A stretch of DNA of 40,168 bases, taken from assembly GCA_050298595.1 (NCBI GenBank), contig JBNKUM010000117.1, forward strand, positions 1-40,168, given 5' to 3'. How positions within the stretch are numbered: the stretch's first letter is position 1; each line of letters begins with the position of its first letter. Positions 1 through 34,715 of this stretch are shown one piece after another. Position numbers and translations under genes: made by a program. The notes beneath the pieces are model-generated. The model made no database searches and was not told the DNA's origin. It saw nothing but the letters and a program-made list of their open reading frames with translations. This stretch comes from Gammaproteobacteria bacterium. GTDB lineage: Bacteria; Pseudomonadota; Gammaproteobacteria; GCA-001735895.

Positions 1-2109
1 GTCAATGACGATGGCGCTTTGGCCCCAATACAGCTACCCGACAGTGATAACAACGCTATCCCTGATATACGAGATTCAGCTGCAAGTGAAAATACTGGGC
101 CGATTGACATAGGCCTGAATGGTGTAGGTGAATTTAATCCTGACTTACTTGCCCTGTTAGTAGCAGTGGCTGGTTTACGTCGTGTGAAGCTGTTAATCAG
201 TAGCATGCTCTCAATCCTGATGTTGTTTATGTTGCAAGGTGAAGCCCAGGCGCAAAACACAAAGCTGTTGCAACAGGTTGATTATCAGCGGCATTTCTAT
301 ATCGGTGGCGGGATAGGACCTTCAACCTTACAGCCATCCACAGCGCATTCAAAATATACACTTGATAATGGCTCTGATATGGGCTCCCGATTGTATGGTG
401 GCCTGGATCTGAGTGAAAGTGTGAGTGTTGAACTAAGCCTGTCCAATTTAGGAGCGGCCACTTTCCAGCCTTCAGGGAAAGTCGATTACTCGGTCAATGT
501 CGTGAATGTTCTGTATTACCTGTCTAACGAAGGTGAGATAGAGCATGCGGGCATAGTTGCATATATCAAAGCAGGGCTGGGGAAAATGGATATCACGTCA
601 GATATTCCCTATGAAGTGAATAACAACACCCAGATTACCCTGGGTGCTGGTGTGGAATATGCGTGGGCAAATGGCTTTGCGCTACGCGCTGACGCCGAGA
701 GTTTTGATGAAGATGCATCGTTGTTAACGGTTGGTTTACTGTATCGGTTCGGTAAGCAGGGTAAGTCAGCAGCAAAGGATAGCGACAAGGATGGTATCTT
801 TGACTCCAATGACCAATGCCCGCAGACACCTTTTCTGGTAACAGTAGATCACAGAGGGTGTGAGCTTGATAGCGATAAAGATGGTGTTATCGATGATCAG
901 GATTACTGTCCTGGAACTTTAAAAGGAGTCAGAGTAGATGCTAATGGTTGTGCGCTGGATACCGACGAGGATGGCGTAATAGACATCGAAGACCAATGCC
1001 CTGCAACCCCTACTTATACTAAAGTGGATAAAAAAGGCTGCGGTCTCGATACCGATGGCGACGGTGTTTTGAACACACTGGATAAATGTCCTGAAACTAT
1101 AAAAGGGGCTGATGTCAGTGCTGTGGGATGTGCCATTTTTGAAAGCAAAATTGAAGGTGTTAATTTCATACAGGCTTCAGCTGAACTGACGGATGAATCT
1201 AAATCGATTCTGGATAAAACGGCGAATGCATTAATTAAATATCCTTTGGTTCGCGTTGAAGTTCAGGCTCATACCGATAGCTATGGAACTCAAGAAAATA
1301 ATCAGAGATTATCTGACCGACGAGCTAAGAGCGTAGTGAATTATCTTGTATCAAGAGGTGTACCTAAACACAGGCTTGTCGCGAAGGGTTATGGTGAAAC
1401 CAGTCCTATAGTTAGTAACCGTACAGTTGAAGGGAGAGCGCAGAACAGGCGTGTTGAGTTGCGTCTACTTTCAGCAGAAGAAGGTATTGATGCCTTAATC
1501 AAGAACGATATGGTTAATAATCAGGATGCTAAGGATAAGGCTAAGGCTAAGGCTAAGGCCAGATCAGAGGCTAAGGCCAGGGCAGAGGCTAAGGCCAGGG
1601 CAGAGGCTAAGGCCAGGGCAGAGGCTAAGGCCAAGGCAGAGGCTAAGGCCAGAGCAGAGGCTAAGGTCAGGGCAGAGGCTAAGGCCAGGGCAGAGGCTAA
1701 GGCCAGGGCAGAGGCCAGGGCAGAGGCTAAGGCCAGGGCAGAGGCTAAGGCCAGGGCAGAGGCTAAGGCCAGAGCAGAGGCTAAGGTCAGGGCAGAGGCT
1801 AAGGCCAGGGCAGAGGCTAAGGTCAGGGCAGAGGCTAAGGCCAGGGCAGAGGCTAAGGCCAGGGCAGAGGCTAAGGCCAGGGCAGAGGCTAAGGCCAGAG
1901 CAGAGGCTAAGGTCAGGGCAGAGGCTAAGGTCAGGGCAGAGGCTAAGGCCAGAGCAGAGGCTAAGGCCAGGGTCAGGGCAGAGGCCAGGGCCAGGGCCAG
2001 GGCAGAGGCTAAGTCAGAGGCTGAGGTTAATGAAGGGATACAAAAGGTGTGGGAAGAGATTGTCTTGAAAAAGCAACATGGTTTGATGTCTCAAAACCCT
2101 GGCGAATAA
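1..2109 (+). CDS. 5'-partial large surface protein: TSP3-type repeat end, GlyGly-CTERM-like TM, internal signal-peptide-like segment, OmpA-type beta-barrel, TSP3 repeats, OmpA C-terminal PG-binding domain, AEAKAR tail
   Basis: Frame 1 is open from base 1 ([22 protein letters not shown]), so the true start lies upstream. The barrel-like region ends in VGLLYRFG. Cys-containing repeats DSDKDG..D..DQCP follow, then OmpA-C motifs [23 protein letters not shown] and NRRVE. Confidence 0.85.
1537..2025 (+). repeat. 18-bp coding tandem repeat (GCAGAGGCTAAGGCCAGG; AEAKAR), about 25 units, preceded by AAGGCT hexamers
   Basis: Directly visible, with minor variants (GTC for GCC, AGA for AGG). Confidence 0.97.
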
Positions 2110-2219: not shown

Positions 2220-2280
2220 ATGTCTGACAGGAACTGTAATCGGTGGATTGCTACACAATAAGGAAAAACCCGGTTCTATT

Positions 2281-2331
2281 TAAAACCAGCAATGAGCTGG
2301 CAGCCAGCCAGGATCTTATCACTTTGATGAT
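2281..2331 (-). pseudogene. Relic of a HupE/UreJ 3' end
   Basis: The minus strand reads IIKVIRSWLAASSLLVL, matching IIRVMGSWLAASSFLVL at the C-terminus of the 12095..12685 gene. Confidence 0.7.
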
Positions 2332-2582
2332 ATCGTCCGATGTATGGTTTTCCATGGAAGGTACGCTGCCGGTTGCTCAGTACCTGTCGCAGAGATTTTC
2401 ATTGGCACATATTGTCGATGCTGTGCGCAGGATTATGATCTATGGGGTCTGAGTGATGGATGTTGAATTTGAGTTTGGCTGTATCACAAACGAATAATCC
2501 ATGTTCCGATATTTAGTGAGTATGAAACAAATGTTAAGCCTCTACAAAAGATTCCCTTCATGTGATAGCGGCAATCAATAAG

Positions 2583-4331
2583 CTAATGAGTTTTGTCTAA
2601 AACAGGTATGGTGATTTTGAAAGTTGCGCCAGTTTCTGTTGTCGTTGCGCTGAGGTGACCCTGATAATTTTCTTCAATGATGTTTTTGGCGATATACAAT
2701 CCAAACCCTGAGTCAGCAGCTATTTTATTACTGTAGCCAGGTTTGAATATGTCATTCACAGGTTTTATTTTGATACCACCGCCATTATCCGAAATGTCGA
2801 TATGTAAGGAATCATTTAGTTTGTATAGATGTATGTGGATGAATGGTGATTGTGTTTTCCTTTCTTCGAATATCTCGCGCGAATTATTTAAAATGCTCAA
2901 CAATACGTGCGTCATTTCATATTTACTACCTGACAGGGTAACGTCATCGTCCAGCTGTGTAGTGATTTTAATATTGTGAATTTTGAAGTTCTTTTCAATC
3001 AGCTGAAGAAGATAATTTATGCTTTTACTGGGCTGGAAGGAGGTGGTTGAATGATTAGTACTTAACAGGTTGCCGAACAAATCCACTTTTCTGGCCATAT
3101 TCTCCATAATGTCATGACATTTGTTAGTGATTTGATCGATTTCTTTTTTCTCTTCACTGCTCATCTGGATGCTATGCGCATTTTTTTCGATTAACATGAT
3201 TTGCAGGCTCAACTCATTAAGGGGCTGTTTCCATTGGTGGGTTATATGGTTAATCGATTCTCCAATGTTGTCGAACTGAGTTTTAATTTTTAGTAAGCGT
3301 AAAAGTTTTTTGTTCAGGTTGGAAAATAAAATGTAAACCACCAATGCGATAATGACGATAATTAACGTGACGCCTGAGCATAAAAATATCCAGAAATAAT
3401 CTCGTTGGTTTTCAGTTTGATAAATGAATCCATCCAGTGAAAAATCGTCGGGCAACATCCCAAGCTCAGCATAGGTTTGTGCAATATGTTTCCAGCGTCC
3501 TTCAAACATATAACCCGGACTGATTATTTCGGGTTGCATCAGGCGCTTCATTTTTTCCGCTTCGTAAAGTAAATGATTACGTCCTTTATGACTGGGGTAT
3601 TTTTCCAGTATCATGTCAATGACCTGTTGCGGGTGCTGCATAGCGTATGTCCAGCCGCGTAAACTGGCGGCTCTAAAATCACGCACTCGATCGGGCTGCT
3701 GTTTGATTTGCTGTTCAGAAGTGAACAGGTTGTCACCATAAAAGTCGATCCCTGCCGAGCGGGGCGTTAAGGCGGAATATTCAATATTAAGCTGATTGAG
3801 CAGGTAGGTTTCGTCAGTGTCATAAGCTGAAATGGCTGCTACCTTTCCATCAATAAAATCCTGAATGTTGTGCCTGTCGCGGATGAATTCGATAGCGTCC
3901 AGAGGTATCTGTTCGTGATTGAGATAGGCGATCAATTCATCAGCCAACGGTTCGATCATGACTTTTTTATGTGTCAGATCCTGAACGTTTTGCAGGTCAT
4001 CGGTATGCTGCATTAACAGGAGGTAAGGTGAGTGTTGCATGATGACCGCTAATACAACCACTGGTTTACCTTGATGGCGCTGTAAAAGCAGGCTATTGTT
4101 GCCAACCCCAAACTCTGCATCGCCGCGTAAAACAACTTCTACAGGGTCAGCATCTGGCCTGGCTTGGAGTAGTTCCACATCAAGGCCAATATCTTTATAG
4201 TACCCGAGTTCTTTGGCGGCATAATAGCCTGCAAATTGAAACTGGTGGGTCCATTTTAATTGCAGACGAACTCTTTCTTCAGCCTGGGAAAGTCCACAGA
4301 AAAGCAGTAAAAAGAGGAAAAGGTATTTCAT
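2583..4331 (-). CDS. Sensor histidine kinase with N-terminal NMT1/THI5-like periplasmic binding domain
   Basis: Signal peptide; LQLKWTHQFQFAGYYAA motif; one TM; H-box HQWKQPLN; N-box; DNGGGI; GFGLYIAK. Confidence 0.92.
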   Translation of the reverse strand: MKYLFLFLLLFCGLSQAEERVRLQLKWTHQFQFAGYYAAKELGYYKDIGLDVELLQARPDADPVEVVLRGDAEFGVGNNSLLLQRHQGKPVVVLAVIMQHSPYLLLMQHTDDLQNVQDLTHKKVMIEPLADELIAYLNHEQIPLDAIEFIRDRHNIQDFIDGKVAAISAYDTDETYLLNQLNIEYSALTPRSAGIDFYGDNLFTSEQQIKQQPDRVRDFRAASLRGWTYAMQHPQQVIDMILEKYPSHKGRNHLLYEAEKMKRLMQPEIISPGYMFEGRWKHIAQTYAELGMLPDDFSLDGFIYQTENQRDYFWIFLCSGVTLIIVIIALVVYILFSNLNKKLLRLLKIKTQFDNIGESINHITHQWKQPLNELSLQIMLIEKNAHSIQMSSEEKKEIDQITNKCHDIMENMARKVDLFGNLLSTNHSTTSFQPSKSINYLLQLIEKNFKIHNIKITTQLDDDVTLSGSKYEMTHVLLSILNNSREIFEERKTQSPFIHIHLYKLNDSLHIDISDNGGGIKIKPVNDIFKPGYSNKIAADSGFGLYIAKNIIEENYQGHLSATTTETGATFKITIPVLDKTH

Positions 4332-5033
4332 TCAAGCACAATCTTTAACATCCAGAGCATTTAGAATCCAGCCGCGAGAGGGTTGATTCTTGATCAGGTC
4401 GTATTTGAGTTTTTTACGTAGCTCGCTGATCAGATTTTTAAGTGCGGATTCGGTCATGTCGCCATCGGCCCAGATGGCTTCGAAAAGTTCTGACTTTCCC
4501 ACGATTCGGTTATTTTTATTGAGTAATAATTCAAGCAGCAAGCACTCTTTTTGACCCAGACTGACTTCACGATTATCGACATGCAGCATCTTTTGTAGCG
4601 GGTGGTAAGTGACTTGTTCACACAGCTTGACCGGCCTGACTTTATGTTCCAGCCGTCTGGCTGCGCGAGCTAAAGCTTTATCCAGTTTTTTAAAGCTAAG
4701 CGGCTTGGTGATATAACCATCTATACGTAAATTAGCTGCACGCATCAGGTAGTGATTTTGGCTGTACGCACTCAGTATAATGACTGGAATTTCTGGATCT
4801 AACTGCCGTAAAGAGTCTATGAGAGAAAAGCCATCTTCGCCCGGCATTTCAATATCTGTAATCACAATATCAATAGGTTTTTCTTTAAAAAAAGCTAAAG
4901 CCGCGCAGGTGCTCTCTGCCAGCGTGATGCTTTTAAACACGGAAGAAAATATGCTATAGATTTCGGCGCAGATACGATGGTTATCGTCAACAAATAGCAA
5001 ATTCAGGTTTTTCAGAATCAGTCTGGTATTCAT
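4332..5033 (-). CDS. OmpR/PhoB-family response regulator (REC plus winged helix)
   Basis: LFVDD, ITDIEMP (phospho-Asp), ILSAY, YITKP; C-terminal LKNLISELRKKL..IKNQPSRGW. Abuts the kinase gene. Confidence 0.93.
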   Translation of the reverse strand: MNTRLILKNLNLLFVDDNHRICAEIYSIFSSVFKSITLAESTCAALAFFKEKPIDIVITDIEMPGEDGFSLIDSLRQLDPEIPVIILSAYSQNHYLMRAANLRIDGYITKPLSFKKLDKALARAARRLEHKVRPVKLCEQVTYHPLQKMLHVDNREVSLGQKECLLLELLLNKNNRIVGKSELFEAIWADGDMTESALKNLISELRKKLKYDLIKNQPSRGWILNALDVKDCA

Positions 5034-5164
5034 TCTCTATGTTTTCAGATAAAAGCGTTGTATTAGCTTTAATACACCCTTTGTTAATAAGGTTAGTATA
5101 ATATTGTTAACCTCGGCACGTTTTAAAGATCTCAATCACAGATTCATCAATTTTTTATAAAAAT

Positions 5165-5197
5165 CAGACTTAATTGAGACTTTGTTTAAGTTATAAA
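5165..5197 (+). promoter_or_regulatory. Putative activator-dependent promoter: CAGACT-N5-GAGACT direct repeat, then 10 bp, then TATAAA
   Basis: 11-bp-period repeat ending 10 bp before a -10 hexamer. Same motif and spacing recur at 11916..11948. Confidence 0.55.
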
Positions 5198-5362
5198 AAA
5201 AATCTGAAATAATTTTAGGACGGTTTTTGTATCTTCAAACAGGGCATCGGTGTGAGGCATAGAAGTGTACCTGGATCATTTTGACAAAAGTAATTGTGCA
5301 TTTTTTGAGCGTCACTGACCAGTTTTTAGTTTTTCAGCCAAAAAAATCTCACTTGAATTTAT

Positions 5363-6403
5363 ACCTCGCCAGAAAAATTTGTGGGTAGTTTCTGGTACAG
5401 GTAAACCTCCAAGTGCATGGTACAGCGCGATTTTTAGCGGCAAAAACGTTCTAAATCAATAGGTTTTTCTGGTAGTCAGTTTTGCTTTGTTATTATAACC
5501 TTCAACAATACCACTGGAGAACTGGCCTTTTGCTTTAAACCAGTTCATTAATAAAGTTCTGTGTCTTCTGAGTATCATTGCTACCTTTTTCATTGGCCCT
5601 ATCTATGATTGCATGTTTTTTGTACACCATATATCCAGAAACTCCCCTGCCAATAGGGTGATATGTACTCCCAAAATAACTGGAACTCTTCTTTCAATAA
5701 ATGGTATCGCATCGTTTTCAAATTGTATTGCACTAAATCAGCTAGCTTACTTTCCTCACTCTCATTTAAGTTTTCCGGTCGCTTGAGTAACAGCCAGCGT
5801 GATTTTATTAATACCGGTTCCAGACCTTTTTTCTTAAGTACTTTAGTTACTTGTGCTCGTACTTCATCAATCGCTTTACTCAAATAAGCCATAATGTGAA
5901 AACGATCCAGTATGTACAGGGCATTAACCGCTTTCTTTTTGATGACCTTCAAATAGGGTTTCCACATGTCACTGCAAACATACTCCAGTTGGCTACTACG
6001 CTCCTTTGGCGCTTGCCTTTTGACCAGGGCATCTTTTCGACATGAATACTACAACGCGGACAGTCCACTCGTCTGGGCGCATAGTGTAAAAAGACTTTAA
6101 TACTCCACATGGGGGGCAATCATTTCTGGGCCAGGGCGTATTGTGTCGATACTGTAGGGGTAGATGCCGAAATGATCCGTAAATATCTGAAATACCGGGA
6201 AAAGTTAGAGAGAAATCTTGAGTTAGATTTCGACTGATATTGACTAACAGCGATGACATAGCGAGCCTTCGAGGAGGGCTCGCTAAATACGCCCTTCCAG
6301 GGCGAAACCAAAACCATGTTCTTAGAATGTGGATTCTTTACTTTTTTCCATACGTAAATTCCTTGAGAATATAACATTTACCCAATAATTTTTCTGAAGA
6401 CCC
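5363..6403 (-). mobile_element. Degenerate ISL3-family insertion sequence
   Basis: Imperfect 25-bp terminal inverted repeats at 5363..5387 and 6379..6403 (core CAGAAAAATT..TGGGTA). Transposase fragments YAPRRVDCPRC (Zn finger), CSDMWKPY, ILDRFH and ALYHALGGLPVPETTHKF, with frameshifts and an internal deletion. Confidence 0.85.
6115..6340 (+). mobile_element. tnpA: 3' fragment of an IS200/IS605-family tnpA with right-end hairpins, nested in the ISL3 relic
   Basis: 6121..6237 translates HFWARAYCVDTVGVDAEMIRKYLKYRE, typical of the Y1 transposase C-terminus. Hairpins GAGCCTTC-GAG-GAGGGCTC and CGCCCT-TCC-AGGGCG follow. Confidence 0.8.
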
Positions 6404-6459: not shown

Positions 6460-9400
6460 GTGAAACTGCCCCATTTTTTTCTTATCATGCTCTGGGGCCT
6501 GGCGCTACCTGCCTGGGCTGTTGATATAGCTGGAACCGTCAATACCTATGTGAAAGGGAGCGGGGATGTCGCCGAAGGCGCAACCACGATTAACTATGCG
6601 GGTTCACTGCGCGGTGCTACTACCTCGATCAACTCTGGTGACCAGCTACTGCTTATTCAATCACAGGGCGCGGTCATCGATTCTACCAATACCGATGCCT
6701 ACGGTGATGGGGTCGGTTCGGGTGCCGATATAAGTACTATACCGACCAGTTTGCATGGCACCCCCGGCTATGCAGGAGGCGTGATATCACAAACAGCGGG
6801 AACCTTCGAATACGCGACCGTAGCTTCGGTTGCAGGCTCTCAGATTACCTTAAGTGAAGGACTCAGGCACGCCTACTCAGATACGGGTGAAGCCAACTGG
6901 CAGATTATTGTCGTGCCTGATTACGGGAGTGCAGGTGCTCGTCTGACGGCAAATATTATTCCTGAATCTTGGGATGGTGATACAGGTGGAGTGGTTGCCT
7001 TTAATGCCACTGGTGGGACGATTGACTTCAATGGATTTACCGTTAATGCGGCCGGTGCAGGTTTCCGAGGTGGTGTCGATGGTGATATCAACAAAACGAC
7101 CGATAATATCGCCAATATGGCGTATACGACCGGTGATGCTGATGGTTTTGGTGGCAAAGGTGAAGGTATCGCCGGTACGCCAAGACACGTCTATGATGGT
7201 TCCGCTGTCATTGATGAAACTGTATCGACTTTAGCCGGGGGAGATTATGGCCGTGGTGCTCCGGGTAATGCAGGTGGTGGTGCAGGTCCCCACAACTCCG
7301 GTGGTGGCGGCGGCTCCAATGCCGGTCCTGGTGGTTCTGGTGCACAGGGCTGGGTAGGCGGCACAGCTTTACATTATGCGGGGTATGGCGGCCAATCCAT
7401 CTTTGCCGGTGCCAATATGGGGGGCGGCGGCGGTTCCGGTGATGCCAACGATGGCGGAGTGATCTATGGTGGATTAGGCGGGGGAGTAATTATTTTACGC
7501 GCTGATACCGGCATTGGATCAGGAACACTGAATGTTAGTGGGGCTGATGCACCCGACACACAATTGACTAGCTCATCAGGCAGTGGTGACGGAGCTGGTG
7601 GCGGCGGAGCTGGTGGTACGGTGATCGTATACTTCTCTACAAGCTGTAGTTTGTCAGGTTTGAGTATTGATGCTTCAGGTGGTACGGGGGGGGACGCTTC
7701 TCCTGAGCACGGCGGTGGTGGCGGCGGCGGTGCTGGTCTGGTCGTTGTAAAGAACGCGACGGTAGGGGTTGTTGATGTCAGCGGTGGCTTGAAAGGAGCA
7801 AACGTGGGTGTTAACGGAGTATCAGGTGAACCGGGTGGAGCAGGCATTGTCGATACTGGTGCTGGTGCTTTTATGCGCTTAAATACCGACTATGGGGATG
7901 CCCCCGATACCTATGGAACTATTTCTGGTGCTCTGGGCGCATACCATTATTTTGCTGATTACGATTTAAATGGCGTTCTAGGTACTATGGAACAACTGCG
8001 TCTTGGCGTAAATCTGGACGGTGAGGGCGGTGGTATCCCTGGCAGCAATGCGGATTCGGATGACAGCAACGGTCTTGATGACGAAGATGGTGTTACCGGG
8101 CTTGCTCAGGTCGATCAGCAGGGATCTACTTATACGATTAGTGCTTCCAATATTAGTGTGACCAATACACTGGGCAGTGATGCCACGCTACATGCCTGGA
8201 TAGATTTTGACCAGAATGGAACCTTCGATAGTGATGAATATAGCTCGATTTCCATTGCTAGCGGCCTGACTGAGCAGAATCCCGCCAGCGACTTGATCTG
8301 GACTGCGATGCCGGGTATCGATACGGTTTCACTGGGATCAACTACCTATCTGCGTCTACGTCTGTCTACGGACAGTAGCCTTGACGCATCAAGTGCGACT
8401 GGCGAAGCAGCCAATGGTGAAGTGGAAGATTATGCCATCACGGTATACGACGCGCTTCCAGCTCCGCTAAATGTGACTCGTTCCAATCCAACGTCTAACT
8501 TCACCAATGCGAATCAGTTGGTGTTTGCGGTGACTTTCAGTGAAAACGTGCAAAATGTCGATATTGCTGATTTTTCGGTGTCTGGTGCTGGTGCGACGGC
8601 TGCCAGTGTCAGTGCTGTAAGCGGTAGTGGCAGCAGCTATATGGTGACCGTGGATGTGGCGGATACAGATGGCCAGGTGAATCTGCATATTGCTGCTACC
8701 ACGGGTATACAGGATTTAAGCGGTAATGATCTGGGTACGATTACTCCCAGTGGTAGCGTGGAAACCTATACGCTAGATAACACCGCACCGACTATTAGCC
8801 TGCAGGGAGCTAGTTTGATAGATGTTACTCTTGGCGATAGCTATAGCGATGAGGGAGCGACTGCGCTCGATAATGTGGATGGAAATCTCACCAGTTCTAT
8901 CGTTACCTCAGGGGCGGTGAATACCGCAGCGCCTGGTACCTATACGATTAGCTACAATGTGAGCGATGCTGTAGGTAATGCAGCTACACAAGTGACTAGA
9001 ACGGTTACTGTCACTATAGGACCGGCCGCAGCGAGTACCAGTTTAATAACAGCAAGCCCAACAGCGATTACAGCCGATGGTAGCAGTACCTCTACCATTA
9101 CTGTTCAATTGAAGGACTCCAATGGGAATAATCTTTCAGCTGGTGGAGATGCGGTTGTATTGACAACAAGCGCTGGTAGCCTCAGTGCTGTAACCGATAA
9201 TGGTAACGGATCTTATACCTCTACCTTAACCAGTAGCACCAGTGTGGCAACCGCAAATATCACGGGTAGTGTTAATTCCGCTTCAATTACCGATACAGAA
9301 AGTGTCAGCTTTACTCCTGCCCCTTCAGCAGCCGCAGCGAGTACCAGTTTAATAACAGCAAACCCCACAGCGATTAAAGCCGATGGTAGCAGTACCTCTA

Positions 9401-11628
9401 CCATTACTGTTCAATTGAAGGACTCCAATGGGAATAATCTTTCAGCTGGTGGAGATGAGGTTGTATTGACAACAAGCGCTGGTAGCCTCAGTGCTGTAAC
9501 TGATAATGGTGACGGATCTTATACCTCTACCTTAACCAGTAGTACCAGTGTGGCAACCGCAAGTATCACGGGTAGCGTTAATTCCGCTTCAATTACCGAT
9601 ACAGAAAGTGTCAGCTTTACTCCTGAACCTTCAGCAGATGAAGACGGAGATGGTATTTCAAACGGAGACGAAGGCTCGGGTGATTTCGATGCAGACGGCA
9701 TACTCGACCTGTTTGATCTGGATAGTGACAACGATGGTATTCCTGACAAGATAGAAGGCAGTGCTGACAGCGATGCAGATGGCATCCCCGATTATCTGGA
9801 TCTGGATTCAGATAACGACGGTCTGTACGATCTGGTAGAGTCCGGTGCCGATTATGCTGCGCTGGATACGTTACATGACGGAACCATTGATGTCAGCAAT
9901 GCGTTCGGTAGCAACGGCCTGGCCGATGCGGTAGAAACTACAGCTGACAGTGGCACGCTCAGTTATAACGGTGGCTCACCACTGGATAGCGATGCAGATG
10001 GTGTAGAAGACTACGTCGATCTGGACTCAGACAACGATGCGCTCACCGATGTGTACGAAGCCGGTGGTGTCGACCCCGATGGCGACGGCATAGTTGGAAG
10101 CGGTGCCCCCACCGTTGATGCCTATGGCGTGGCGACAACTGGAGCGGCCCTGACTCCAATCGATTACGATGGAGATGGCGAGAATGATCAGATCGATCTG
10201 GACAGCGACAACGACGGTATTTTGGATGTCATCGAATTCGCTGGAAAAGATCCGGATGGTGATGGTCAGATAGGTTCAGCACCCGCACAGGTCGATAGTA
10301 AAGGTCTGTTTAAGAATGGAAGTTTGCCAGCCATAGATACCGATGGTGATGGCGTACCAAACCAGCACGATCTGGATAGTGACAACGATGGTATCCCCGA
10401 TGTGACTGAAGCCGGTGGCAGCGACCCGGATGGTGATGGTACCGCAGGTAGCGGAACACCAACAGTCAATGAGCAGGGTATTGGCACTATGCTGAATCCA
10501 GGTAATATTGATGGCGATTCAATTCTTGATCCCTATGACCTCGATAGTGATGGCGACGGCAAATTTGACCTGGTCGAAGCAGGTGGTCCTGATACCAATA
10601 ATGATGGTCTGGTGGATGGTTTTACTGATACCAACGGCGATGGTTTTGATGATGCAATTGCAGCGCAGGCTTTACCCTTACCAGACAGTGACGCAGATGG
10701 TGTTCCTGACTACAGGGACAATGATGACAGCGACAATGATGGTGTGCCCGATAGCGTTGACGTAGATGACGATAACGATGGTATTCCTGACGCGCTAGAA
10801 GGTGATGGAAATATTGACACTGATGCAGATGGTGTTCCTGACAGTCAGGATCTGGATTCAGATAATGATGGGCTGTATGACCTGTATGAATCGGGTTTCC
10901 AGAATCCATCCGCAATCGATGCCGATAATGACGGTCGACTCGATAGCACTTTGAGTGTCGGTGTCAATGGGTTTGCAGACAACCTGGAAACCAGCGTTGA
11001 TAGTGGCTTGATCAACTACAATGGTGGCGCGCTGCTAGATACTGATGCTGATGGAGTGAAAGACTTCCGTGATCTGGACAGTGATAACGACAGTATTCCC
11101 GACGTGATTGAAAGTGGCGGTGTCGATGATGATGGGGATGGAGTACTCGGCAGTGGAACACCCATGGTCAATAGCGGTGGTCAGGCGTCAGGCGCTGGCT
11201 CCGGTCCATTGGATACGGATAACGATGGCATCCCCGATCAACAGGATCTGGATACCGATAACGATGGTATTCCTGACCTGCAGGAGGTCGGTGGCACTGA
11301 TAGCGACAACAACGGTGAAGTAGATACATTTGTGGACAGCAATGGTGATGGTTTCGACGATACCATTGCAACCTCTCCCAGGGTCTTACCCGACAGTGAT
11401 GGTGATGGCACACCCGATCTGCGTGATTCAGCCGTAGGTAATGGCGTAGTAATTGCCGGGCTGAGTGGTATTGGCAGTTTTAATCTGTGGATGCTGGCAG
11501 TGCTGGGCATGCTGGCAGGCTTATGTCGGGTACAACGACTATTTGCAGCTTACCTTTCACTATTGCTGTTGTTTGTTGGGTGGCCCATCAGGCCGAACAG
11601 ACACAACAGGATGAGTACCCACAGCTGA
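6460..11628 (+). CDS. Giant secreted adhesin-like protein (Gly-rich N-terminus, GEVED domain, Ig-like/DUF5011, two invasin-type Ig domains, many Ca-binding DxDxDG repeats, GlyGly-CTERM-like TM); probably 3'-truncated
   Basis: Signal peptide; DYGDAPDTYG and GEVEDY; VTFSENV; DNTAPTISLQG..DEGATALDNVDG; ADGSSTSTITVQLKD twice; DLDSDNDG repeats; hydrophobic C-terminus. Confidence 0.88.
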   Translation: MKLPHFFLIMLWGLALPAWAVDIAGTVNTYVKGSGDVAEGATTINYAGSLRGATTSINSGDQLLLIQSQGAVIDSTNTDAYGDGVGSGADISTIPTSLHGTPGYAGGVISQTAGTFEYATVASVAGSQITLSEGLRHAYSDTGEANWQIIVVPDYGSAGARLTANIIPESWDGDTGGVVAFNATGGTIDFNGFTVNAAGAGFRGGVDGDINKTTDNIANMAYTTGDADGFGGKGEGIAGTPRHVYDGSAVIDETVSTLAGGDYGRGAPGNAGGGAGPHNSGGGGGSNAGPGGSGAQGWVGGTALHYAGYGGQSIFAGANMGGGGGSGDANDGGVIYGGLGGGVIILRADTGIGSGTLNVSGADAPDTQLTSSSGSGDGAGGGGAGGTVIVYFSTSCSLSGLSIDASGGTGGDASPEHGGGGGGGAGLVVVKNATVGVVDVSGGLKGANVGVNGVSGEPGGAGIVDTGAGAFMRLNTDYGDAPDTYGTISGALGAYHYFADYDLNGVLGTMEQLRLGVNLDGEGGGIPGSNADSDDSNGLDDEDGVTGLAQVDQQGSTYTISASNISVTNTLGSDATLHAWIDFDQNGTFDSDEYSSISIASGLTEQNPASDLIWTAMPGIDTVSLGSTTYLRLRLSTDSSLDASSATGEAANGEVEDYAITVYDALPAPLNVTRSNPTSNFTNANQLVFAVTFSENVQNVDIADFSVSGAGATAASVSAVSGSGSSYMVTVDVADTDGQVNLHIAATTGIQDLSGNDLGTITPSGSVETYTLDNTAPTISLQGASLIDVTLGDSYSDEGATALDNVDGNLTSSIVTSGAVNTAAPGTYTISYNVSDAVGNAATQVTRTVTVTIGPAAASTSLITASPTAITADGSSTSTITVQLKDSNGNNLSAGGDAVVLTTSAGSLSAVTDNGNGSYTSTLTSSTSVATANITGSVNSASITDTESVSFTPAPSAAAASTSLITANPTAIKADGSSTSTITVQLKDSNGNNLSAGGDEVVLTTSAGSLSAVTDNGDGSYTSTLTSSTSVATASITGSVNSASITDTESVSFTPEPSADEDGDGISNGDEGSGDFDADGILDLFDLDSDNDGIPDKIEGSADSDADGIPDYLDLDSDNDGLYDLVESGADYAALDTLHDGTIDVSNAFGSNGLADAVETTADSGTLSYNGGSPLDSDADGVEDYVDLDSDNDALTDVYEAGGVDPDGDGIVGSGAPTVDAYGVATTGAALTPIDYDGDGENDQIDLDSDNDGILDVIEFAGKDPDGDGQIGSAPAQVDSKGLFKNGSLPAIDTDGDGVPNQHDLDSDNDGIPDVTEAGGSDPDGDGTAGSGTPTVNEQGIGTMLNPGNIDGDSILDPYDLDSDGDGKFDLVEAGGPDTNNDGLVDGFTDTNGDGFDDAIAAQALPLPDSDADGVPDYRDNDDSDNDGVPDSVDVDDDNDGIPDALEGDGNIDTDADGVPDSQDLDSDNDGLYDLYESGFQNPSAIDADNDGRLDSTLSVGVNGFADNLETSVDSGLINYNGGALLDTDADGVKDFRDLDSDNDSIPDVIESGGVDDDGDGVLGSGTPMVNSGGQASGAGSGPLDTDNDGIPDQQDLDTDNDGIPDLQEVGGTDSDNNGEVDTFVDSNGDGFDDTIATSPRVLPDSDGDGTPDLRDSAVGNGVVIAGLSGIGSFNLWMLAVLGMLAGLCRVQRLFAAYLSLLLLFVGWPIRPNRHNRMSTHS
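9025..9636 (+). repeat. 306-bp near-identical tandem duplication encoding two invasin-type Ig domains
   Basis: GCCGCAGCGAGTACCAGTTTAATAAC begins at both 9025 and 9331, with only scattered substitutions. Confidence 0.95.
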
Positions 11629-11640
11629 AGTGGTGTAGAT

Positions 11641-11740
11641 CAAGGCGTGACGACGCGGAATAGCGAGCTATTCCAGGGAGTTACAAGGCTACCGCGTCCT
11701 GCTCACGCCCCTTACCTATATCCCTATAGGCAACGCAGAG
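11641..11740. repeat. Palindromic intergenic repeat (GGAATAGC-GA-GCTATTCC core) with a nested 44-bp mini-element
   Basis: Hairpin visible. Segment 11687..11730 is flanked by CAA on both sides and resembles 20487..20521. Confidence 0.55.
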
Positions 11741-11915
11741 ATACGCCGCCTCAAACCTGCAATTCAGCTCGTAGCAGAATTCATCTCTTTGGTGAAAATA
11801 CAAACCGACTATGATCGTTTACGAAATAGAGGGTTACTCTCTAATACGAGCGATCAACTGTGGAATCCATGTTTAAGGGGCTCAATCATAGATTTTATTA
11901 ATTATATTAAAAAAT

Positions 11916-11948
11916 CAGACTAATTTGAGACTCAAGTCGAGTTATAAA
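11916..11948 (+). promoter_or_regulatory. Second copy of the CAGACT-N5-GAGACT / TATAAA promoter motif
   Basis: 11881..11948 aligns with 5131..5197. Confidence 0.55.
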
Positions 11949-12010
11949 CTCTGTATTAGCTTTTTAAGTGTTTACTGTGGCTTTCTTGACCAATACTTGG
12001 TCTCTACTTT

Positions 12011-12038
12011 GGCCGTGCATTTATGCACGGCCTTTTTT
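12011..12038 (+). terminator. Rho-independent terminator
   Basis: GGCCGTGCAT-TT-ATGCACGGCC followed by T6. Confidence 0.85.
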
Positions 12039-12094
12039 AAGTCTGATAAGAACCAGAATTGGTTGATAGTAAAATCAATCAGAAAAAAACTGCA

Positions 12095-12685
12095 CTATTT
12101 CAAAGCTAAAGCCAGCACCAGAAAAGAACTGGCAGCGAGCCAGGACCCCATTACTCTGATGATGACTTTTTTCCAGAGGGCTTTATTAAAAAAGTCAGCG
12201 AATGCCATCGGGTAAAGTAAAAAGAAGTAGATACCCACGCCACTGCCAAACAACGCAACAAATTTGGCTTCACCAGTCAGTGTTTCCTGGGTTGAATCCA
12301 CTCCCAGTAGCAAGCCACAAATAGCGCCAATAATGCAACACCAGAGTAAAACCAGATTGGGTGATAGCGCGATCAGCAAGCCCATCACTGCCGAGCAACT
12401 GAGCATGACCAGTTCAAGCGGAGCACCCGGTGAAAACCAGGCGCCCACCAGTCCCAGCAGCGTAGCAGCCAGAAACACCATAATCGCGATCTGTTTGTCC
12501 TTCATGCCCTGCTGGCCCAAAAAAAGACCGATAGCAATTAAAAGTAACAGATGCGAGGGCACGAGCAGCGGATGTAATACGCCATTGTAAAAATTGTTAA
12601 TGCCTTTGATCGGGGTATGCGCGAAGGCCGACCCTGGTGCGAGCATCAGCATTAGCCATAAAAATGAACGAAGCCTGTAGGTCAT
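12095..12685 (-). CDS. HupE/UreJ-family membrane protein (Ni/Co transporter-like)
   Basis: AFAH after a signal peptide, GVLHPLLVPSHLL motif, multiple TMs. The start at 12685 overlaps the upstream stop (ATGA). Confidence 0.85.
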   Translation of the reverse strand: MTYRLRSFLWLMLMLAPGSAFAHTPIKGINNFYNGVLHPLLVPSHLLLLIAIGLFLGQQGMKDKQIAIMVFLAATLLGLVGAWFSPGAPLELVMLSCSAVMGLLIALSPNLVLLWCCIIGAICGLLLGVDSTQETLTGEAKFVALFGSGVGIYFFLLYPMAFADFFNKALWKKVIIRVMGSWLAASSFLVLALALK

Positions 12686-13266
12686 ACCACTCCAGTCAGA
12701 AAGCCAACACCAAGCACTGCGATGACACCGCCACCAGCCTGAACCGCTATTTTTCCAAGCGGCCAACGTACCAGTAAACCGAAAGCTATACCTAGCAGAT
12801 GCAGCAGTCCTGTGGCTATCACAAACCCCAGGCTATAGGTAATCGGGTTCGCCGCACCTGGCAACTCGGTGCCATGAGCATGGCCATGAAAGATGGCGAA
12901 GGCGGCAACGATTACCGCAGCAATCCAGATCGGGGGACGAACTGCAAAAGCGACCATAAGCCCGAGCACAATAGAAGAAACAGCAATCCCGGTTTCAATC
13001 GATGGAACAGGAATACCCAATACACCCAACGCGCCACCAAAGGCCATCACCAGTGGGAAAACTACCGGCAGCACCCAGATCGCAGGCATCCCCAGAAAAG
13101 CACCCCATAAACCGACCGCTACCATAGCGATGACATGGTCCCAACCCAGAATCGGGTGGGTAAAACCACTGGTAAATCCACCAATCACACCACCCTGATG
13201 GGCCAGAGCAATTTCTGAAAACAGTGTAAAAGCCACGGTTATGGCAAAGGTGTTGAATAACTTCAT
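12682..13266 (-). CDS. hupE: HupE/UreJ-family nickel transporter / accessory protein
   Basis: GFTHPILGWDHVIAMVAVGLW, FHGHAHGTE and GFVIATGLLH motifs. Confidence 0.93.
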   Translation of the reverse strand: MKLFNTFAITVAFTLFSEIALAHQGGVIGGFTSGFTHPILGWDHVIAMVAVGLWGAFLGMPAIWVLPVVFPLVMAFGGALGVLGIPVPSIETGIAVSSIVLGLMVAFAVRPPIWIAAVIVAAFAIFHGHAHGTELPGAANPITYSLGFVIATGLLHLLGIAFGLLVRWPLGKIAVQAGGGVIAVLGVGFLTGVV

Positions 13267-13401
13267 TAATGCAGACTCCTTAAAATATTGAGTTTTGAGG
13301 CCTTCTTAAGCGCGTAATAATAACTGAGTTGGGTCAGGGATGTAATATGGTTTTCGGCGCAGCAGGGTCGCTGAGACAGGCTGTAGCCGAACTATCTGAA
13401 A

Positions 13402-15165
13402 TTAAAAACTGTAAGCCTTTTCTACCATGTTTCTGCTTAACACGCCGAAGATATGATGTTCACCCTTGCGCATACAGCGTTCCACAAAAAGCGCTTCATA
13501 AGTGCCGGATTGCAGCATCTCGTAAGCTTCCTGCAGGTTGGCCTGCAGATGAATACTGCCTACCTGCCAGCGTAGCGCGGGTATTTCCAGCAGGTCGATA
13601 GAGTCTGGGGCATCTTCTTTGGGTCGGGCTTCAATATACTTGGCTAACTCGACCGCAGGCATCAGTGTGACGGGGATATTGTCTTTATCAATGAGTATAA
13701 AGTTGGGCTTGTTCTGTAGAATTTCGAGCGCAAGATTATTAGAGACAACATTATCGACATGGATGAAATTCTGCTCCATTACGCTGCCAACCCCGACCCG
13801 GCGCAGGCTTTGCAAAATAGGGTTGGTGTTGTAATCCGCCCCGGAAGCTTTCAGCATGGAAAGAAACAGAGATTGCTTTCTAAACAATTCACTGGCTGTG
13901 ACTCCAGAGACCACCACCGCCAGCATACCAGGCAGAATCACAGAGGGGTTATCGGTCAGTTCCAGCATAGCAACTAGTGCAGCAAGTGGTGCCTGCAGGC
14001 TGGCCGACATCATGGCGCCCATGCCCAGTAGCGCAAAGAATCCGGCTTCGGTATTCAGATCAAATGGCAGCAGCAAAAATATTTTGGCGGTAGCCGCACC
14101 CAGCATAGCGCCGATGAACAGGGTTGGGCCAATCATGCCTCCGGGTACCCCTAATCCAACCACTATAGAAGTCGCTAAAAGTTTAGTGACGACAAGAAGC
14201 ATTAACAGGCCAATAGCCAGATGACCATTCAGGGCCAGCTCTACGGTGTCGTATCCAATCCCCATCAGTTGCGGAATAAACATAGCGCTGAGCCCCATTA
14301 AAACACCCGCCAGCAGCAGTCGCCACCAGATGGGTATGTTTTTACTACTGCGCGTGAAGTGTTGCAGTAAATGTATAAAAAGGGCTGAAACCGATCCCGC
14401 CACTACCCCCAGAATAATGACCAGCACCAGATCACTCAAAGAACCCATTTCCATCACCGGTACGGTAAATGCAGCAGCACTGCCCAGTACTACATTGGAA
14501 ACTGTAGTAGCGACAACTGCCGCCAGAATGACGGGAATAAAGCTGGCGACGGTGTATTCCATCAATACCACTTCTAGCGCAAAAATCACCCCGGCCAGGG
14601 GCGTATTGAACGACGCGGCAATACCCGCGGCGGTGCCACAGCCTACAAAGGTTCGAATGGTATTATTAGGCAGGGAAAAATATTGCCCCATCAGGCTTCC
14701 CGCAGCGGCACCCAGAAATACATGTGGGCCTTCGCGTCCAACCGATTGACCACTGATCAGGGCAATTGCCGCCCCCACAAACTGCAGTACAAATCCACGC
14801 AGGGTGAAGTGCCCCTGATGGTAGGTCATGCGTTCCATCACCCGAGGCACACCTAAAGCATGCAGCCCTTTGCCAGCAAAACGGAACAGCAGGGCAAGCA
14901 AGATTGCGCCAACGATAGGTAGTGCGAAGCTAGCCCATTCGGGCAAGGCTTCGTAGTTATCCGAGCCCTGACCGGGCAGGATAAAATCCTGACTGGTTTC
15001 CACCAGCATGCGAAACAGCACGATCACAGAGCCTGCCAGCAAACCGGTGAGCAGGCCGAGCAGGGACAGCGGCAACAAGGCATCAGGACGAGCCAGCTGA
15101 ATGCGCATGGCATCCAGACGGTCTATACGTTGGTAAGTTAAGTTACTGCCGAGTTTTTTTTTCAA
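13402..15165 (-). CDS. ClC-family chloride channel / H+:Cl- antiporter with degenerate CBS-like tail
   Basis: GREGP, GIAASFNTPLAG, GVPGGMIGPTLFIG and MGIGY motifs. Start codon uncertain. Confidence 0.92.
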   Translation of the reverse strand: MKKKLGSNLTYQRIDRLDAMRIQLARPDALLPLSLLGLLTGLLAGSVIVLFRMLVETSQDFILPGQGSDNYEALPEWASFALPIVGAILLALLFRFAGKGLHALGVPRVMERMTYHQGHFTLRGFVLQFVGAAIALISGQSVGREGPHVFLGAAAGSLMGQYFSLPNNTIRTFVGCGTAAGIAASFNTPLAGVIFALEVVLMEYTVASFIPVILAAVVATTVSNVVLGSAAAFTVPVMEMGSLSDLVLVIILGVVAGSVSALFIHLLQHFTRSSKNIPIWWRLLLAGVLMGLSAMFIPQLMGIGYDTVELALNGHLAIGLLMLLVVTKLLATSIVVGLGVPGGMIGPTLFIGAMLGAATAKIFLLLPFDLNTEAGFFALLGMGAMMSASLQAPLAALVAMLELTDNPSVILPGMLAVVVSGVTASELFRKQSLFLSMLKASGADYNTNPILQSLRRVGVGSVMEQNFIHVDNVVSNNLALEILQNKPNFILIDKDNIPVTLMPAVELAKYIEARPKEDAPDSIDLLEIPALRWQVGSIHLQANLQEAYEMLQSGTYEALFVERCMRKGEHHIFGVLSRNMVEKAYSF

Positions 15166-25728: not shown

Positions 25729-27663
25729 TTGATTGACACCACACTTTTAGAATCCGAAACCCGAAAACAGATCGATGCCAAGCTCGAATCGGCAGGTTGG
25801 GTTATTCAGGATAAAAGTCGTCTCAATCTATTTGAGTCATTGGGTGTCGCAGTTCGCGAAATGGACACCGATACCGGCCCAGCGGATTATCTGTTATTCA
25901 TCGATGGTAAAGCCTGCGGCGTTATCGAGGCAAAGCGCGAAGGCACAGACCTAGGTGGAGTATCCGAACAATCTGCCCGTTATGCCACATCTACTGTAAA
26001 GTTTATCGAGCGCTGGGTACCTGAAGACCAGGCGCTACCTTTTCTGTATGAAGCCACCAATCACGAAATCCGCTTTCGGGATGAACGAGATCCCCATCCA
26101 CGATCACGCAATGTATTTCACTTTCACAAACCAGAAACCCTGAAAGAATGGCTGGAAGAAATTCGCACCCTGAGAACACGATTGGCACAAGATCTACCGG
26201 AGCTGAATATTGAAAACCTACGCTCGTGTCAGATAGATGCCGTCCAGGGCATTGAACACAGTCTCAAACAAGCCAAACCTCGTGCGTTACTACAAATGGC
26301 CACAGGTTCCGGCAAAACCTATACCGCCGTTACCGAAGTCTATCGTCTGGCCAAGTTCGCAAAGGTCAAACGCGTCCTGTTCCTAGTCGACCGTGGCAAC
26401 CTCGCCACCAATGCCAAGGATGAATTTGAACAATTCGTCATCCCCCATGATGGACGCAAATTCACGCAGCACTACAACGTCAATATTCTCGGTCGAGCGG
26501 GTATTCCCGATGCCACCAAGGTCACTATCTCTACCATCCAGCGCCTGTATTCCCAGCTCTCCAATCAGGAGCTGGATGACGAGGCCGACGAGCGTTCGGG
26601 TTTCGAGATGGAAAGTAACACCATGACCAAAGAGCAGAGGCCAGTGACTTACAATGCCAATACCCCCATCGAAGCATTCGATGTCATCATCATCGACGAG
26701 TGCCACCGCTCTATCTACAACCTATGGCGTCAGGTACTCGAATACTTCGATGCCTTTCTCATTGGCCTCACTGCTACACCCACCAAAAAGACCATTGGCT
26801 TTTTTGGGCAGAACCTGGTTAGTGAATACACTCACGAAGACGCCGTGGTCGACAAGGTCAATGTGGGCTACGACATCTACCGCATCAAAACCGAACTCAC
26901 CGAACAGGGCAACAAAATCGAAGCTGGCACCGCCGTCGAAATCCGCGACCGCCTCACCAAACAAAAACGCCTTGAAGTACTCGACCAGGAAGAAGAATGG
27001 CTCGCCAGACAACTCGACCGCAGCGTACTGGCCCCCAACCAGATTCGTACCGTCATCCAGGCCTATAAAGATCGCTGTCTAAAAGAGTGCTTCCCCGAAC
27101 GAAACTGGATACACAGCTCCCTCTCCCTTGAGGTAGAGGGCAGGGGTGAGGGTGAAAGCCGCATGGAATGGGTCCCCAAAACCCTCGTCTTCGCCAAAGA
27201 CGACGACCACTGCGACCGCATCGTCGATGCAGTGCGCGTAGTCTTCGATGAAGGCAATGCCTTCTGCAAAAAAATCACCTACAAAGTCGGCAAAAAAACC
27301 GCAGAAGAATCCATCAAAGCCTTCCGCACCGATCCGCAATACCGCATTGCCGTCACCGTCGATATGATCGCCACCGGTACCGACATCCGGCCCCTGGAAT
27401 GCGTCATGTTCATGCGCGATGTCAAAAGCCAGTCCTACTATGAACAAATGAAAGGTCGCGGCACCCGCATCATCAGCCGCGATGAACTGCACACAAATTC
27501 GTTGGGAACGAATTTGGTCGCACTTCAGTGCGCCTCGAAGGAGCGAGCGCGAGGGATGGCGCGAGACAAAGTCACCTATTACAATTCTGCGAAGGTCTGC
27601 TTACTGACCTCATTAAATTATCGAAATATGGGAAACTCAGATGCACGAATTAGAATCGATTAA
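25729..27663 (+). pseudogene. hsdR: Type I restriction subunit R (EcoEI/EcoAI-like), C-terminally truncated, with two in-frame repeat insertions
   Basis: PADY..IEAK nuclease motif, MATGSGKT, IIDECHRS, GLTATP and QMKGRGTR. HsdR-like sequence stops at about 27576 (KVT), far shorter than a full R subunit. Confidence 0.85.
27493..27567 (+). mobile_element. 75-bp multi-hairpin mini-element inserted in frame in hsdR
   Basis: Homologous to 32871..32945; hairpins CAAATTCGTT-GGG-AACGAATTTG and GCAC-TTCA-GTGC. Confidence 0.75.
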
Positions 27664-27988
27664 GTTGAAGCTCCGTAAATTTGCAAATGAGCGCGATTGG
27701 GATCAGTTTCACTCACCAAAGAATCTTTCAATGGCTCTAATAGCTGAAGCAGCTGAACTCATTGAGCATTTTCAGTGGCTGACAGAAGAACAGTCTCATA
27801 ATTTAAAAGACGATAAATTGAAAGAAGTAGAAGAGGAGATAGCAGATATACAAATTTATCTCATTCGTATTGCCGACAAATTAGGGATTGATCTTATTGA
27901 TGCTGCAAAGAGAAAAATTGATATCAATGAGAAAAAATATCCGGCGTTAAAAGTAAAAGGAAATGCAAAGAAATATACTGAATACTAA
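27641..27988 (+). CDS. MazG-like nucleotide pyrophosphohydrolase (dCTPase/RS21-C6-like)
   Basis: FANERDWDQFHSPKNL..EAAEL.EHFQW..EEIAD..KKYP. Confidence 0.92.
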   Translation: MHELESIKLKLRKFANERDWDQFHSPKNLSMALIAEAAELIEHFQWLTEEQSHNLKDDKLKEVEEEIADIQIYLIRIADKLGIDLIDAAKRKIDINEKKYPALKVKGNAKKYTEY

Positions 27989-28006
27989 TTAAGGAGAGCT
28001 AGTAAA

Positions 28007-32441: not shown

Positions 32442-32507
32442 AAAATTAGGCGATAAAATTTGGAAAGATAAGTATCCGTAGATAATAATTATTGTAAATA
32501 AATTTAC

Positions 32508-34669: not shown

Positions 34670-34715
34670 TACTTTTAATCAAATAAAAAATCAAACATGA
34701 TGGTTCTCTAAAAAA

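Follow-up and report, generated by a model that had tools for sequence, protein, structure and literature searches.

A predicted sorting tag joined in frame to an internal signal peptide in a gammaproteobacterial family of adhesin/OmpA-like proteins

How can a single reading frame hold in its middle both a sorting tag of the kind that normally ends a protein and a signal peptide of the kind that normally begins one? The question is raised by the first open reading frame (ORF) of the stretch of gammaproteobacterial DNA analysed here, the first 40 kb of contig C117 (40,168 nucleotides, nt; hereafter the window). A first-pass annotation had described in this one ORF a Ca-binding repeat, a Gly-rich/transmembrane/Arg tag, a second hydrophobic stretch ending in AQA before a Q, and an OmpA barrel, an order that translation, Pfam and AlphaFold2 bear out, and it had proposed that the product is cut in two. 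We find that interpretation to be largely right as a hypothesis, and partly supported by the comparisons described below. It is very likely that the fusion represents a widespread in-frame joining of two neighbouring envelope genes, and we consider it probable, on balance, that the whole chain of events holds, namely that a fused adhesin/OmpA-like precursor is processed into two partner proteins; every processing step, the cleavage into two proteins included, is one that we infer from sequence. To our knowledge, bacterial polyproteins that are cut at an internal signal peptide are rare.

The junction in the window ORF and in its relatives

Frame 1 of the window is open from nt 1 to a stop codon at nt 2107-2109, a total of 702 amino acids (aa). 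The 5' end of the ORF is missing because the window begins at base 1 of C117, and not for a biological reason; for the same reason, only a single Ca-binding-type repeat lies inside the window. Nucleotides 112-255 encode, in this order, a Gly-rich motif, a hydrophobic stretch (transmembrane segment 1, TM1), two Arg residues and a signal-peptide-like stretch (TM2) with AQA and then Q at its end (Table 1). TM2 is internal and yet has the attributes of a signal peptide, with a basic n-region (RRVK), a hydrophobic h-region and small residues at positions -3 and -1, and signal peptidase I is predicted to cut between nt 252 and 253, that is, between A84 and Q85, to give a mature protein that begins with QNTKLL. 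The positive-inside rule predicts that the passenger lies outside, that the Arg loop is cytoplasmic and that the barrel part lies outside again.

The part that follows the junction belongs to the OmpA family. Pfam finds OmpA (PF00691) at aa 389-483 with 79.1 bits (cut-off 27.2) and two outer-membrane barrel domains above their gathering scores, OMP_b-brl at aa 72-250 (49.2 bits, cut-off 28.7) and OmpA_membrane (21.4 bits, cut-off 21), while every NCBIfam model of the OmpA type stays below its cut-off on the window ORF. An AlphaFold2 model of aa 1-255, computed from an alignment of 12 sequences, has eight long strands across aa 99-250 with high confidence, and Foldseek matches it to the transmembrane domain of OmpA (9fzc_A, E 7e-8, TMt 0.69) and to that of OprF (4rlc, TMt 0.70).

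The fused frame recurs well beyond the window. A protein search gave matches in 11 of 41 related genomes. In G001, G002, G004, G008, G010, G011, G012 and G014, as well as on contig C92 of the genome under study, the match lies within an open frame (910-2953 aa) that no stop interrupts at the junction. The 12 junction-plus-barrel segments that we aligned are 66-25% identical to the window, and G43 of the G-x-G motif is invariant among them. The full-length relative in G010 (2089 aa) has a signal-peptide-like start followed by a Gly-rich AgmC_N-like region, GEVED and Ig-like domains and a long run of Asp-rich Ca-binding-type repeats, and then continues with the junction, the barrel, TSP_3 and OmpA. 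A profile built from the 12-segment alignment, when searched against 1.84 billion representative proteins, matched 2571 proteins at E<=0.001 and 247 at E<=1e-30. We classified the best 150 of the 2571 matches together with P0001 (151 sequences). Ninety-seven are fused, being long proteins (median 1147 aa) in which the match lies well within the sequence; another 43 are short stand-alone proteins (median 365 aa, 41 of them starting with Met), in which the match begins near the N terminus at the profile position of the second helix; the other 11 are fragments or odd cases. The recurrence of the junction among homologs, on which the first-pass annotation had made its proposal depend, is thus found. 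A class-wide sample of 300 genomes, with one or two genomes per family, contained 31 with a match at E<=1e-10, and fused and stand-alone forms often coexist in single genomes of this sample.

The layout of the junction is as constant as its presence. We analysed the 85 residues before the first barrel strand in those fused relatives in which this strand could be located (76 of 97). Two separate uncharged hydrophobic runs were present in 73 of the 76, the loop between the runs was net basic in each of these 73 two-run proteins (median 6 aa), and small residues occupied positions -3 and -1 after the last run in 76/76, according to a crude rule. Most members have the motif [E/R/K]-T-[A/G]-x-x-G-x-G-[S/G/A] before the first helix, and about 15 of the 97 fused relatives have a Cys in this pre-helix stretch and resemble Cys-containing tags. 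Among 33 analysable stand-alone relatives, 30 have a single N-terminal hydrophobic run, situated where the fused forms have TM2, and 30 have small residues at -3 and -1. The junction layout is thus more than chance.

The unfused relatives reveal what the two helices are. At 8 of 16 stand-alone loci (L037, L042, L044, L048, L050, L051, L052 and L055), the OmpA-like gene is preceded by a long ORF that is read in a different frame and runs up to, or into, the start of this gene, and these upstream ORFs end with TGLxGxGG[C/S], a hydrophobic helix, an Arg/Lys cluster (RRR) and a stop; no such upstream ORF was seen at the other 8 loci. Because the split relatives place the two helices on abutting genes, the first is a sorting tag, normally C-terminal, and the second a signal peptide with which a distinct OmpA-like protein begins, in agreement with the first-pass annotation. 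By this comparison, the window junction is a C-terminal sorting tag joined in frame to the N-terminal signal peptide of its partner. Homologs that encode adhesin and OmpA as separate genes had been put forward in that annotation as evidence that would overturn the idea. Many homologs join the two and some do encode them separately, but the separate genes in some relatives strengthen the two-protein reading. When 140 representatives are placed on a tree built from the barrel alone, the fused/split label changes 28 times, compared to a mean of 37.0 for shuffled labels (range 28-42, 200 shuffles). The fused and split states are therefore interleaved, and the 28 changes are an upper bound since some "stand-alone" entries are probably fragments.

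Sorting tag, rhombosortase and type II secretion

The window tag has the tripartite layout of a Gly-rich motif, a hydrophobic helix and a basic cluster, but it is internal, with 641 residues after R61 in the window ORF, and only the split relatives have it at the C terminus. The first-pass annotation had likened it to GlyGly-CTERM, the tag processed by rhombosortase, a comparison that stands as regards the enzyme and fails as regards the family model. A rhombosortase is encoded in the genome (C62:89647-90099, 146.7 bits, cut-off 84), and a gene for the type II secretin GspD (587.5 bits) lies about 3 kb from it (C62:84998-90099 region), as the annotation's link to type II secretion would have it. 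The same genome also encodes canonical GlyGly-CTERM proteins, at least three in number, one tail being for instance SGGGAMSIYGLLCLLTLYGFRRRIYS (SGGGAMS type), and GspD and rhombosortase share a contig in G004, G011 and G014 as well. In the class-wide sample, rhombosortase scored above its cut-off in 16/16 genomes with the fused form versus 94/299 overall (Fisher one-sided p = 3.5e-9, a value that overstates the association because the sampled genomes are kin and not independent). These counts exclude G000, and the baseline includes G319, which has no family match and on which the result does not depend. When any family match is considered, rhombosortase is present in 27 of 30 genomes, the exceptions being G132, G176 and G317. 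Within the window, we found no gene for rhombosortase, type II secretion or dedicated processing.

Other tags occur with the same partner. The adhesin tags at L037, L042, L044, L048 and L051 contain a Cys and a D-P motif (GGC...DP...helix...RRR) and are not of the GlyGly class; this Cys/D-P tag class is paired with the same OmpA-like family. Among the matches listed for 55 fused relatives compared with NCBIfam, the sole tag match is that of the fused protein P0087 to JDVT-CTERM (27.6 bits, cut-off 27).

We propose that an N-terminal signal peptide would start Sec export of the passenger, and that TM1 would halt the transfer so that the Arg loop remains in the cytoplasm. TM2 would then re-initiate export, and signal peptidase I would cleave after AQA. 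The OmpA-like protein thus freed would place its barrel into the outer membrane and its OmpA domain on peptidoglycan, and the passenger would remain on the membrane hairpin. Processing of the tag, for which rhombosortase is the most likely enzyme, would follow; the type II secretion system would carry the passenger to the surface, and the two products, made in 1:1 amounts, would associate like TraA and TraB, a pair of proteins discussed below. The first-pass annotation had also entertained the idea of a one-gene secretion system. An eight-stranded OmpA barrel gives no reason for such a system, and export of the passenger through the type II system is more likely.

A more detailed picture can be offered tentatively, and only as a whole, since its parts are proposed jointly. 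The fused form may be a display cassette whose hairpin precursor is cut twice, by signal peptidase I and by rhombosortase, into co-located products in a 1:1 ratio; one product would be a lipid-anchored adhesin, and the other a dedicated OmpA-like protein by which this adhesin is held to both outer membrane and cell wall; and the family would have undergone repeated fusion and splitting, using both GlyGly-like and Cys-containing tags. We regard this joint picture as possible rather than probable.

Several observations weigh against the processing of the precursor as outlined above. In the window copy, TM1 consists of just 11 uncharged residues (L49-L59) preceded by D48, which is short for a membrane helix, relatives having about 15. 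AlphaFold2 draws TM1 and TM2 as one continuous helix (aa 47-77) and no hairpin, with a pLDDT of about 33-59; because of this low confidence, the model is uninformative on the hairpin. A crude test detected an N-terminal signal peptide in just 62 of the 88 Met-starting fused relatives, and some "stand-alone" entries, such as P0045 beside P0016, are probably fragments of fused genes. None of 11 junction 40-mers reached the cut-off of the GlyGly-CTERM model TIGR03501 (15.5 bits); the best score was 12.7 bits (L012), the window copy and the paralog described below were not reported by the model, and we rejected the window tag as a TIGR03501 member because all 11 junctions fall below the cut-off. 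A genome-wide scan with the same model gave 7 matches, none of them on C117. The G010 genome, which is 99% complete and carries the 2089-aa fused gene, has no rhombosortase detectable with the family model or with the studied genome's own rhombosortase protein as a query, and this query had no match in G012 or G008 either. G010 is also devoid of the GspD type that accompanies rhombosortase elsewhere, and retains a second GspD type. Finally, the sole evidence for a join between C117 and contig C41, which would supply the start of the window ORF, is an identical overlap of 141 nt.

Alternative readings and known systems

Window positions 1-141 are 100% identical to the last 141 bases of C41, in an assembly that is fragmented into 119 contigs. 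If C41 joins C117, the ORF starts at an ATG located 59 codons upstream, reaches 761 aa and has a signal-peptide-like start, and a stub of about 75-100 residues separates this start from the tag. Passenger residues ~67-327 of the 908-aa G001 ortholog are missing from the window copy, and hardly any of the surface passenger that the first-pass annotation had attributed to it is left. Compared with its ortholog, the window copy is thus seen to be derived and degraded, with its passenger cut to a stub if the C41-C117 join holds. Its short TM1 behind an Asp may signal a decay of the tag after passenger loss. A decayed array lies on C41 directly upstream of the window ORF (L008 11527-14726; Table 1).

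One alternative concerns the window copy in particular and supposes that the OmpA-like protein is made alone from the GTG at 184-186, the upstream stub being what remains of a decayed adhesin gene, either untranslated or of no consequence. This GTG is a possible internal start that directly precedes the signal-peptide-like stretch, a large part of the passenger is missing (residues ~67-327 of the ortholog), broken partial copies lie just upstream on C41, and a fragment of an ISL3 transposase is found nearby. However, the GTG has no Shine-Dalgarno-like sequence before it and is unconserved: close relatives have V, A, V, I, T, V or L at this position, four of them thus differing from V (A, I, T and L). 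In addition, the frame continues into C41 for another 59 codons without a stop, back to the ATG and the signal-peptide-like start. We consider synthesis from the GTG unlikely.

Another alternative, which we hold to be quite improbable, is that the precursor remains uncut and forms an envelope-spanning tether, anchored in the inner membrane by a hairpin, with the passenger in the periplasm and with the barrel and the OmpA domain at the level of outer membrane and cell wall. Cleavage is indeed something we infer; the fusion has been retained in many lineages, so the covalent link could matter in itself; and the KA-rich tail of 170 residues and the TSP3 linker look like long spacers. Yet fused and split forms are interleaved on the tree, and in the split forms the two parts are made as separate proteins, in which the tag is truly C-terminal and the signal peptide truly N-terminal. 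Moreover, small -3/-1 residues are kept in all of the analysable fused relatives (76/76), and only about 14 residues lead from A84 to the first strand (aa 99), so that the barrel of an uncut protein could hardly reach the outer membrane.

The proposal that the single frame is an artefact, in which a sequencing or assembly error masks a stop or a frameshift between two ordinary genes, might draw on the 119-contig assembly, the contig edge and the repetitive region, but we reject it as extremely improbable given the independent recurrence of the same in-frame junction in assemblies across genera and families, down to 25-26% identity, in 97/151 classified relatives and twice more in the genome itself (C92 and the paralog).

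Processing of the fused precursor into two partner proteins, the reading that we prefer, can be compared with systems already described. TraA and TraB of Myxococcus xanthus function jointly in outer-membrane exchange, as a MYXO-CTERM-tagged surface receptor and an OmpA-domain partner encoded by overlapping genes (PMC3325183). Like this pair, the window family associates a tripartite-tagged surface protein with an OmpA-domain partner, and the 8 split relatives have the two-gene layout; the TraB model NF033763 scores 132 bits on the window protein, over the TSP3 and OmpA part, which is far below its cut-off of 700. Unlike TraA/TraB, the window family has one reading frame and a GlyGly-like tag (G-[IV]-G) that does not contain the invariant Cys of MYXO-CTERM, and its passenger domains differ, with no PA14 domain found.

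In the M. xanthus protein MXAN_5598, an internal MYXO-CTERM lies between a large adhesin region and an outer-membrane barrel with an OmpA domain, and the authors suggest, as a proposal made in their Discussion, that two genes were fused and that the N-terminal part is processed (PMC11980579). In the window family, too, one ORF encodes a large adhesin at its N terminus and, after it, an internal sorting tag, a barrel and an OmpA domain. The relatives have this fused layout in full; the window ORF has it from the tag to the OmpA domain, its adhesin being a stub. The paralog scores 110.2 bits with the AgmC_N model NF047640, whose cut-off is 275, and relatives are matched by this model as well. 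Unlike MXAN_5598, which is described from Myxococcota with MYXO-CTERM and myxosortase, the window family is gammaproteobacterial, has a GlyGly-like tag and co-occurs with rhombosortase. The passages devoted to MXAN_5598 in that paper make no mention of an internal signal peptide or of the breadth of the family (PMC11980579).

GlyGly-CTERM/rhombosortase sorting (TIGR03501, TIGR03902) is exemplified by VesB of Vibrio cholerae, according to the same paper (PMC11980579). The window tag resembles GlyGly-CTERM in its Gly motif, helix and Arg cluster and in the adjacent rhombosortase and type II secretin genes of its genome. It differs in that it is internal, has G-V-G or G-I-G for the canonical G-G, and is followed by a second helix and a whole protein. 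A cut at an internal signal also occurs in FbcH, the cytochrome b/c1 precursor of Bradyrhizobium, which signal peptidase converts into two membrane-associated partners. FbcH, however, is an unrelated protein of a respiratory complex and contains neither a sorting tag nor an outer-membrane part. What is new here is that the form is gammaproteobacterial and linked to rhombosortase, and that the family is broad, the layout itself being known in print from one Myxococcus protein. In open full text, to which our search was confined (subscription journals being outside its scope), we found no literature on such fusions beyond PMC11980579.

The locus and its implications

Table 1. Coordinates of the window ORF's parts, of the paralog and of the L008 array (nt; dotted ranges refer to the window, hyphenated ones to L008 on contig C41)
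Feature	Coordinates	Strand	Evidence or remark
Passenger tail: one Asp-rich Ca-binding-type repeat and linker	1..111	+	ORF truncated by contig start
Sorting-tag signature	112..138	+	G43 invariant, G41 nearly invariant among 12 relatives (alignment)
TM1, hydrophobic part of sorting tag	145..177	+	Putative stop-transfer segment
Basic loop R-R-V-K	178..189	+	Putatively cytoplasmic; contains GTG at 184-186
TM2, predicted internal signal peptide (h-region, c-region QGEAQA)	190..252	+	Stand-alone relatives: N-terminal signal peptide at same profile position
Eight-stranded OmpA-type outer-membrane beta-barrel	295..750	+	Pfam, AlphaFold2, Foldseek
Cys-containing thrombospondin type 3 repeats, linker from barrel to OmpA domain	784..1125	+	TSP_3, 4 stretches, 49.1 bits; coordinates from translation
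OmpA C-terminal peptidoglycan-binding domain	1165..1449	+	PF00691, aa 389-483
Lys/Ala/Glu/Arg-rich tail (AEAKAR repeats), short end, stop at 2107-2109	1532..2109	+	Tandem repeat and translation
Paralogous 1722-aa adhesin	6460..11628	+	NCBIfam, Pfam, DNA comparison with C92
L008, adhesin in two frames, junction, truncated barrel	11527-13316		
L008, junction fragment	~13485-13777		Abuts the next fragment
L008, OmpA C-terminal fragment	13777-14064		
L008, apparent start of window ORF	14409-14726		

The paralog comprises an N-terminal signal peptide, AgmC_N-like, GEVED and Ig-like domains, Ca-binding repeats, the tag, TM1 and a remnant of TM2 (from ~nt 11458 on). The first-pass annotation had stated that it keeps the same junction. 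The tag and TM1 are indeed still present, but what comes after TM1 is Cys-Arg, and so a basic residue, a second hydrophobic stretch and a stop 17 codons later, with neither an AxA motif nor an OmpA part; the statement is thus correct solely for the two helices. Over nt 9635-11527, its DNA is 84% identical to the intact copy on C92 (at least 2127 aa); homology ends at nt 11527 and resumes at 11968-12275, the flank that normally comes after the OmpA gene. The DNA comparison thus indicates that the OmpA part of the paralog has been deleted, and the locus as a whole can be described, from its sequence, as a patchwork of duplicated, deleted and decaying copies.

The C-terminal tail of the window ORF extends for ~170 residues after the OmpA domain and is encoded by an 18-bp tandem repeat (25.9 copies, nt 1532-1991, coding to ~2068). 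This AEAKAR tail may be a long helical spacer. The same 18-bp repeat is present at both ends of contig C92 and also in G001, and it is probably this repeat that breaks the assembly.

Further traces of rearrangement are visible in the neighbourhood. The 3' fragment of an ABC-2-type permease gene (window 2243-2479) is 84% identical in DNA to L008:10459-10613, and this match indicates that the neighbourhood (ABC transporter, response regulator and adhesin-OmpA) was duplicated piecemeal; window 4332-5198 also matches L008:10686-11551, with 82% identity. A fragment of an ISL3-family transposase (122 aa, minus strand, 5599-5967) lies between the response-regulator gene and the 1722-aa adhesin gene. 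A histidine kinase with a periplasmic NMT1/THI5-like binding domain and an OmpR-type response regulator are encoded on the minus strand at 2583-5033, divergently from the adhesins, and a homologous regulator precedes the adhesin copy on C41; the kinase/regulator pair may control the adhesin genes. Farther along, two adjacent membrane ORFs of the HupE/UreJ family occupy 12095-13266 on the minus strand, with overlapping listed coordinates (12095-12766 and 12682-13266). A defence-type cluster spans 25729-36391 on the plus strand, with a ResIII/SNF2 helicase that has an HSDR_N end, a MazG-like protein, an AAA_5 ATPase together with a DUF2357/PD-(D/E)XK protein (McrBC-like), an N6 DNA methylase, two Mrr-type endonucleases and an HNH protein.

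These findings bear on how C-terminally tagged giant adhesins are held on Gram-negative surfaces and on the role of TraB-like partners. That a tagged adhesin is covalently linked to an OmpA-like protein in so conserved a manner implies that the two work together. In the genome studied here, labour may have been divided naturally between copies, the one at 6460-11628 being an adhesin that lacks OmpA and the one at 1-2109 an OmpA-like protein almost devoid of adhesin. Annotators should leave fused ORFs of this kind whole and not split them in two by way of "correction". The strong tie to rhombosortase widens the likely substrate range of this enzyme to internal tags. If the joint picture of a precursor cut twice into a lipid-anchored adhesin and its OmpA-like holder is true, the family would exemplify a general and as yet undescribed rule for mounting giant adhesins in Gram-negative bacteria.

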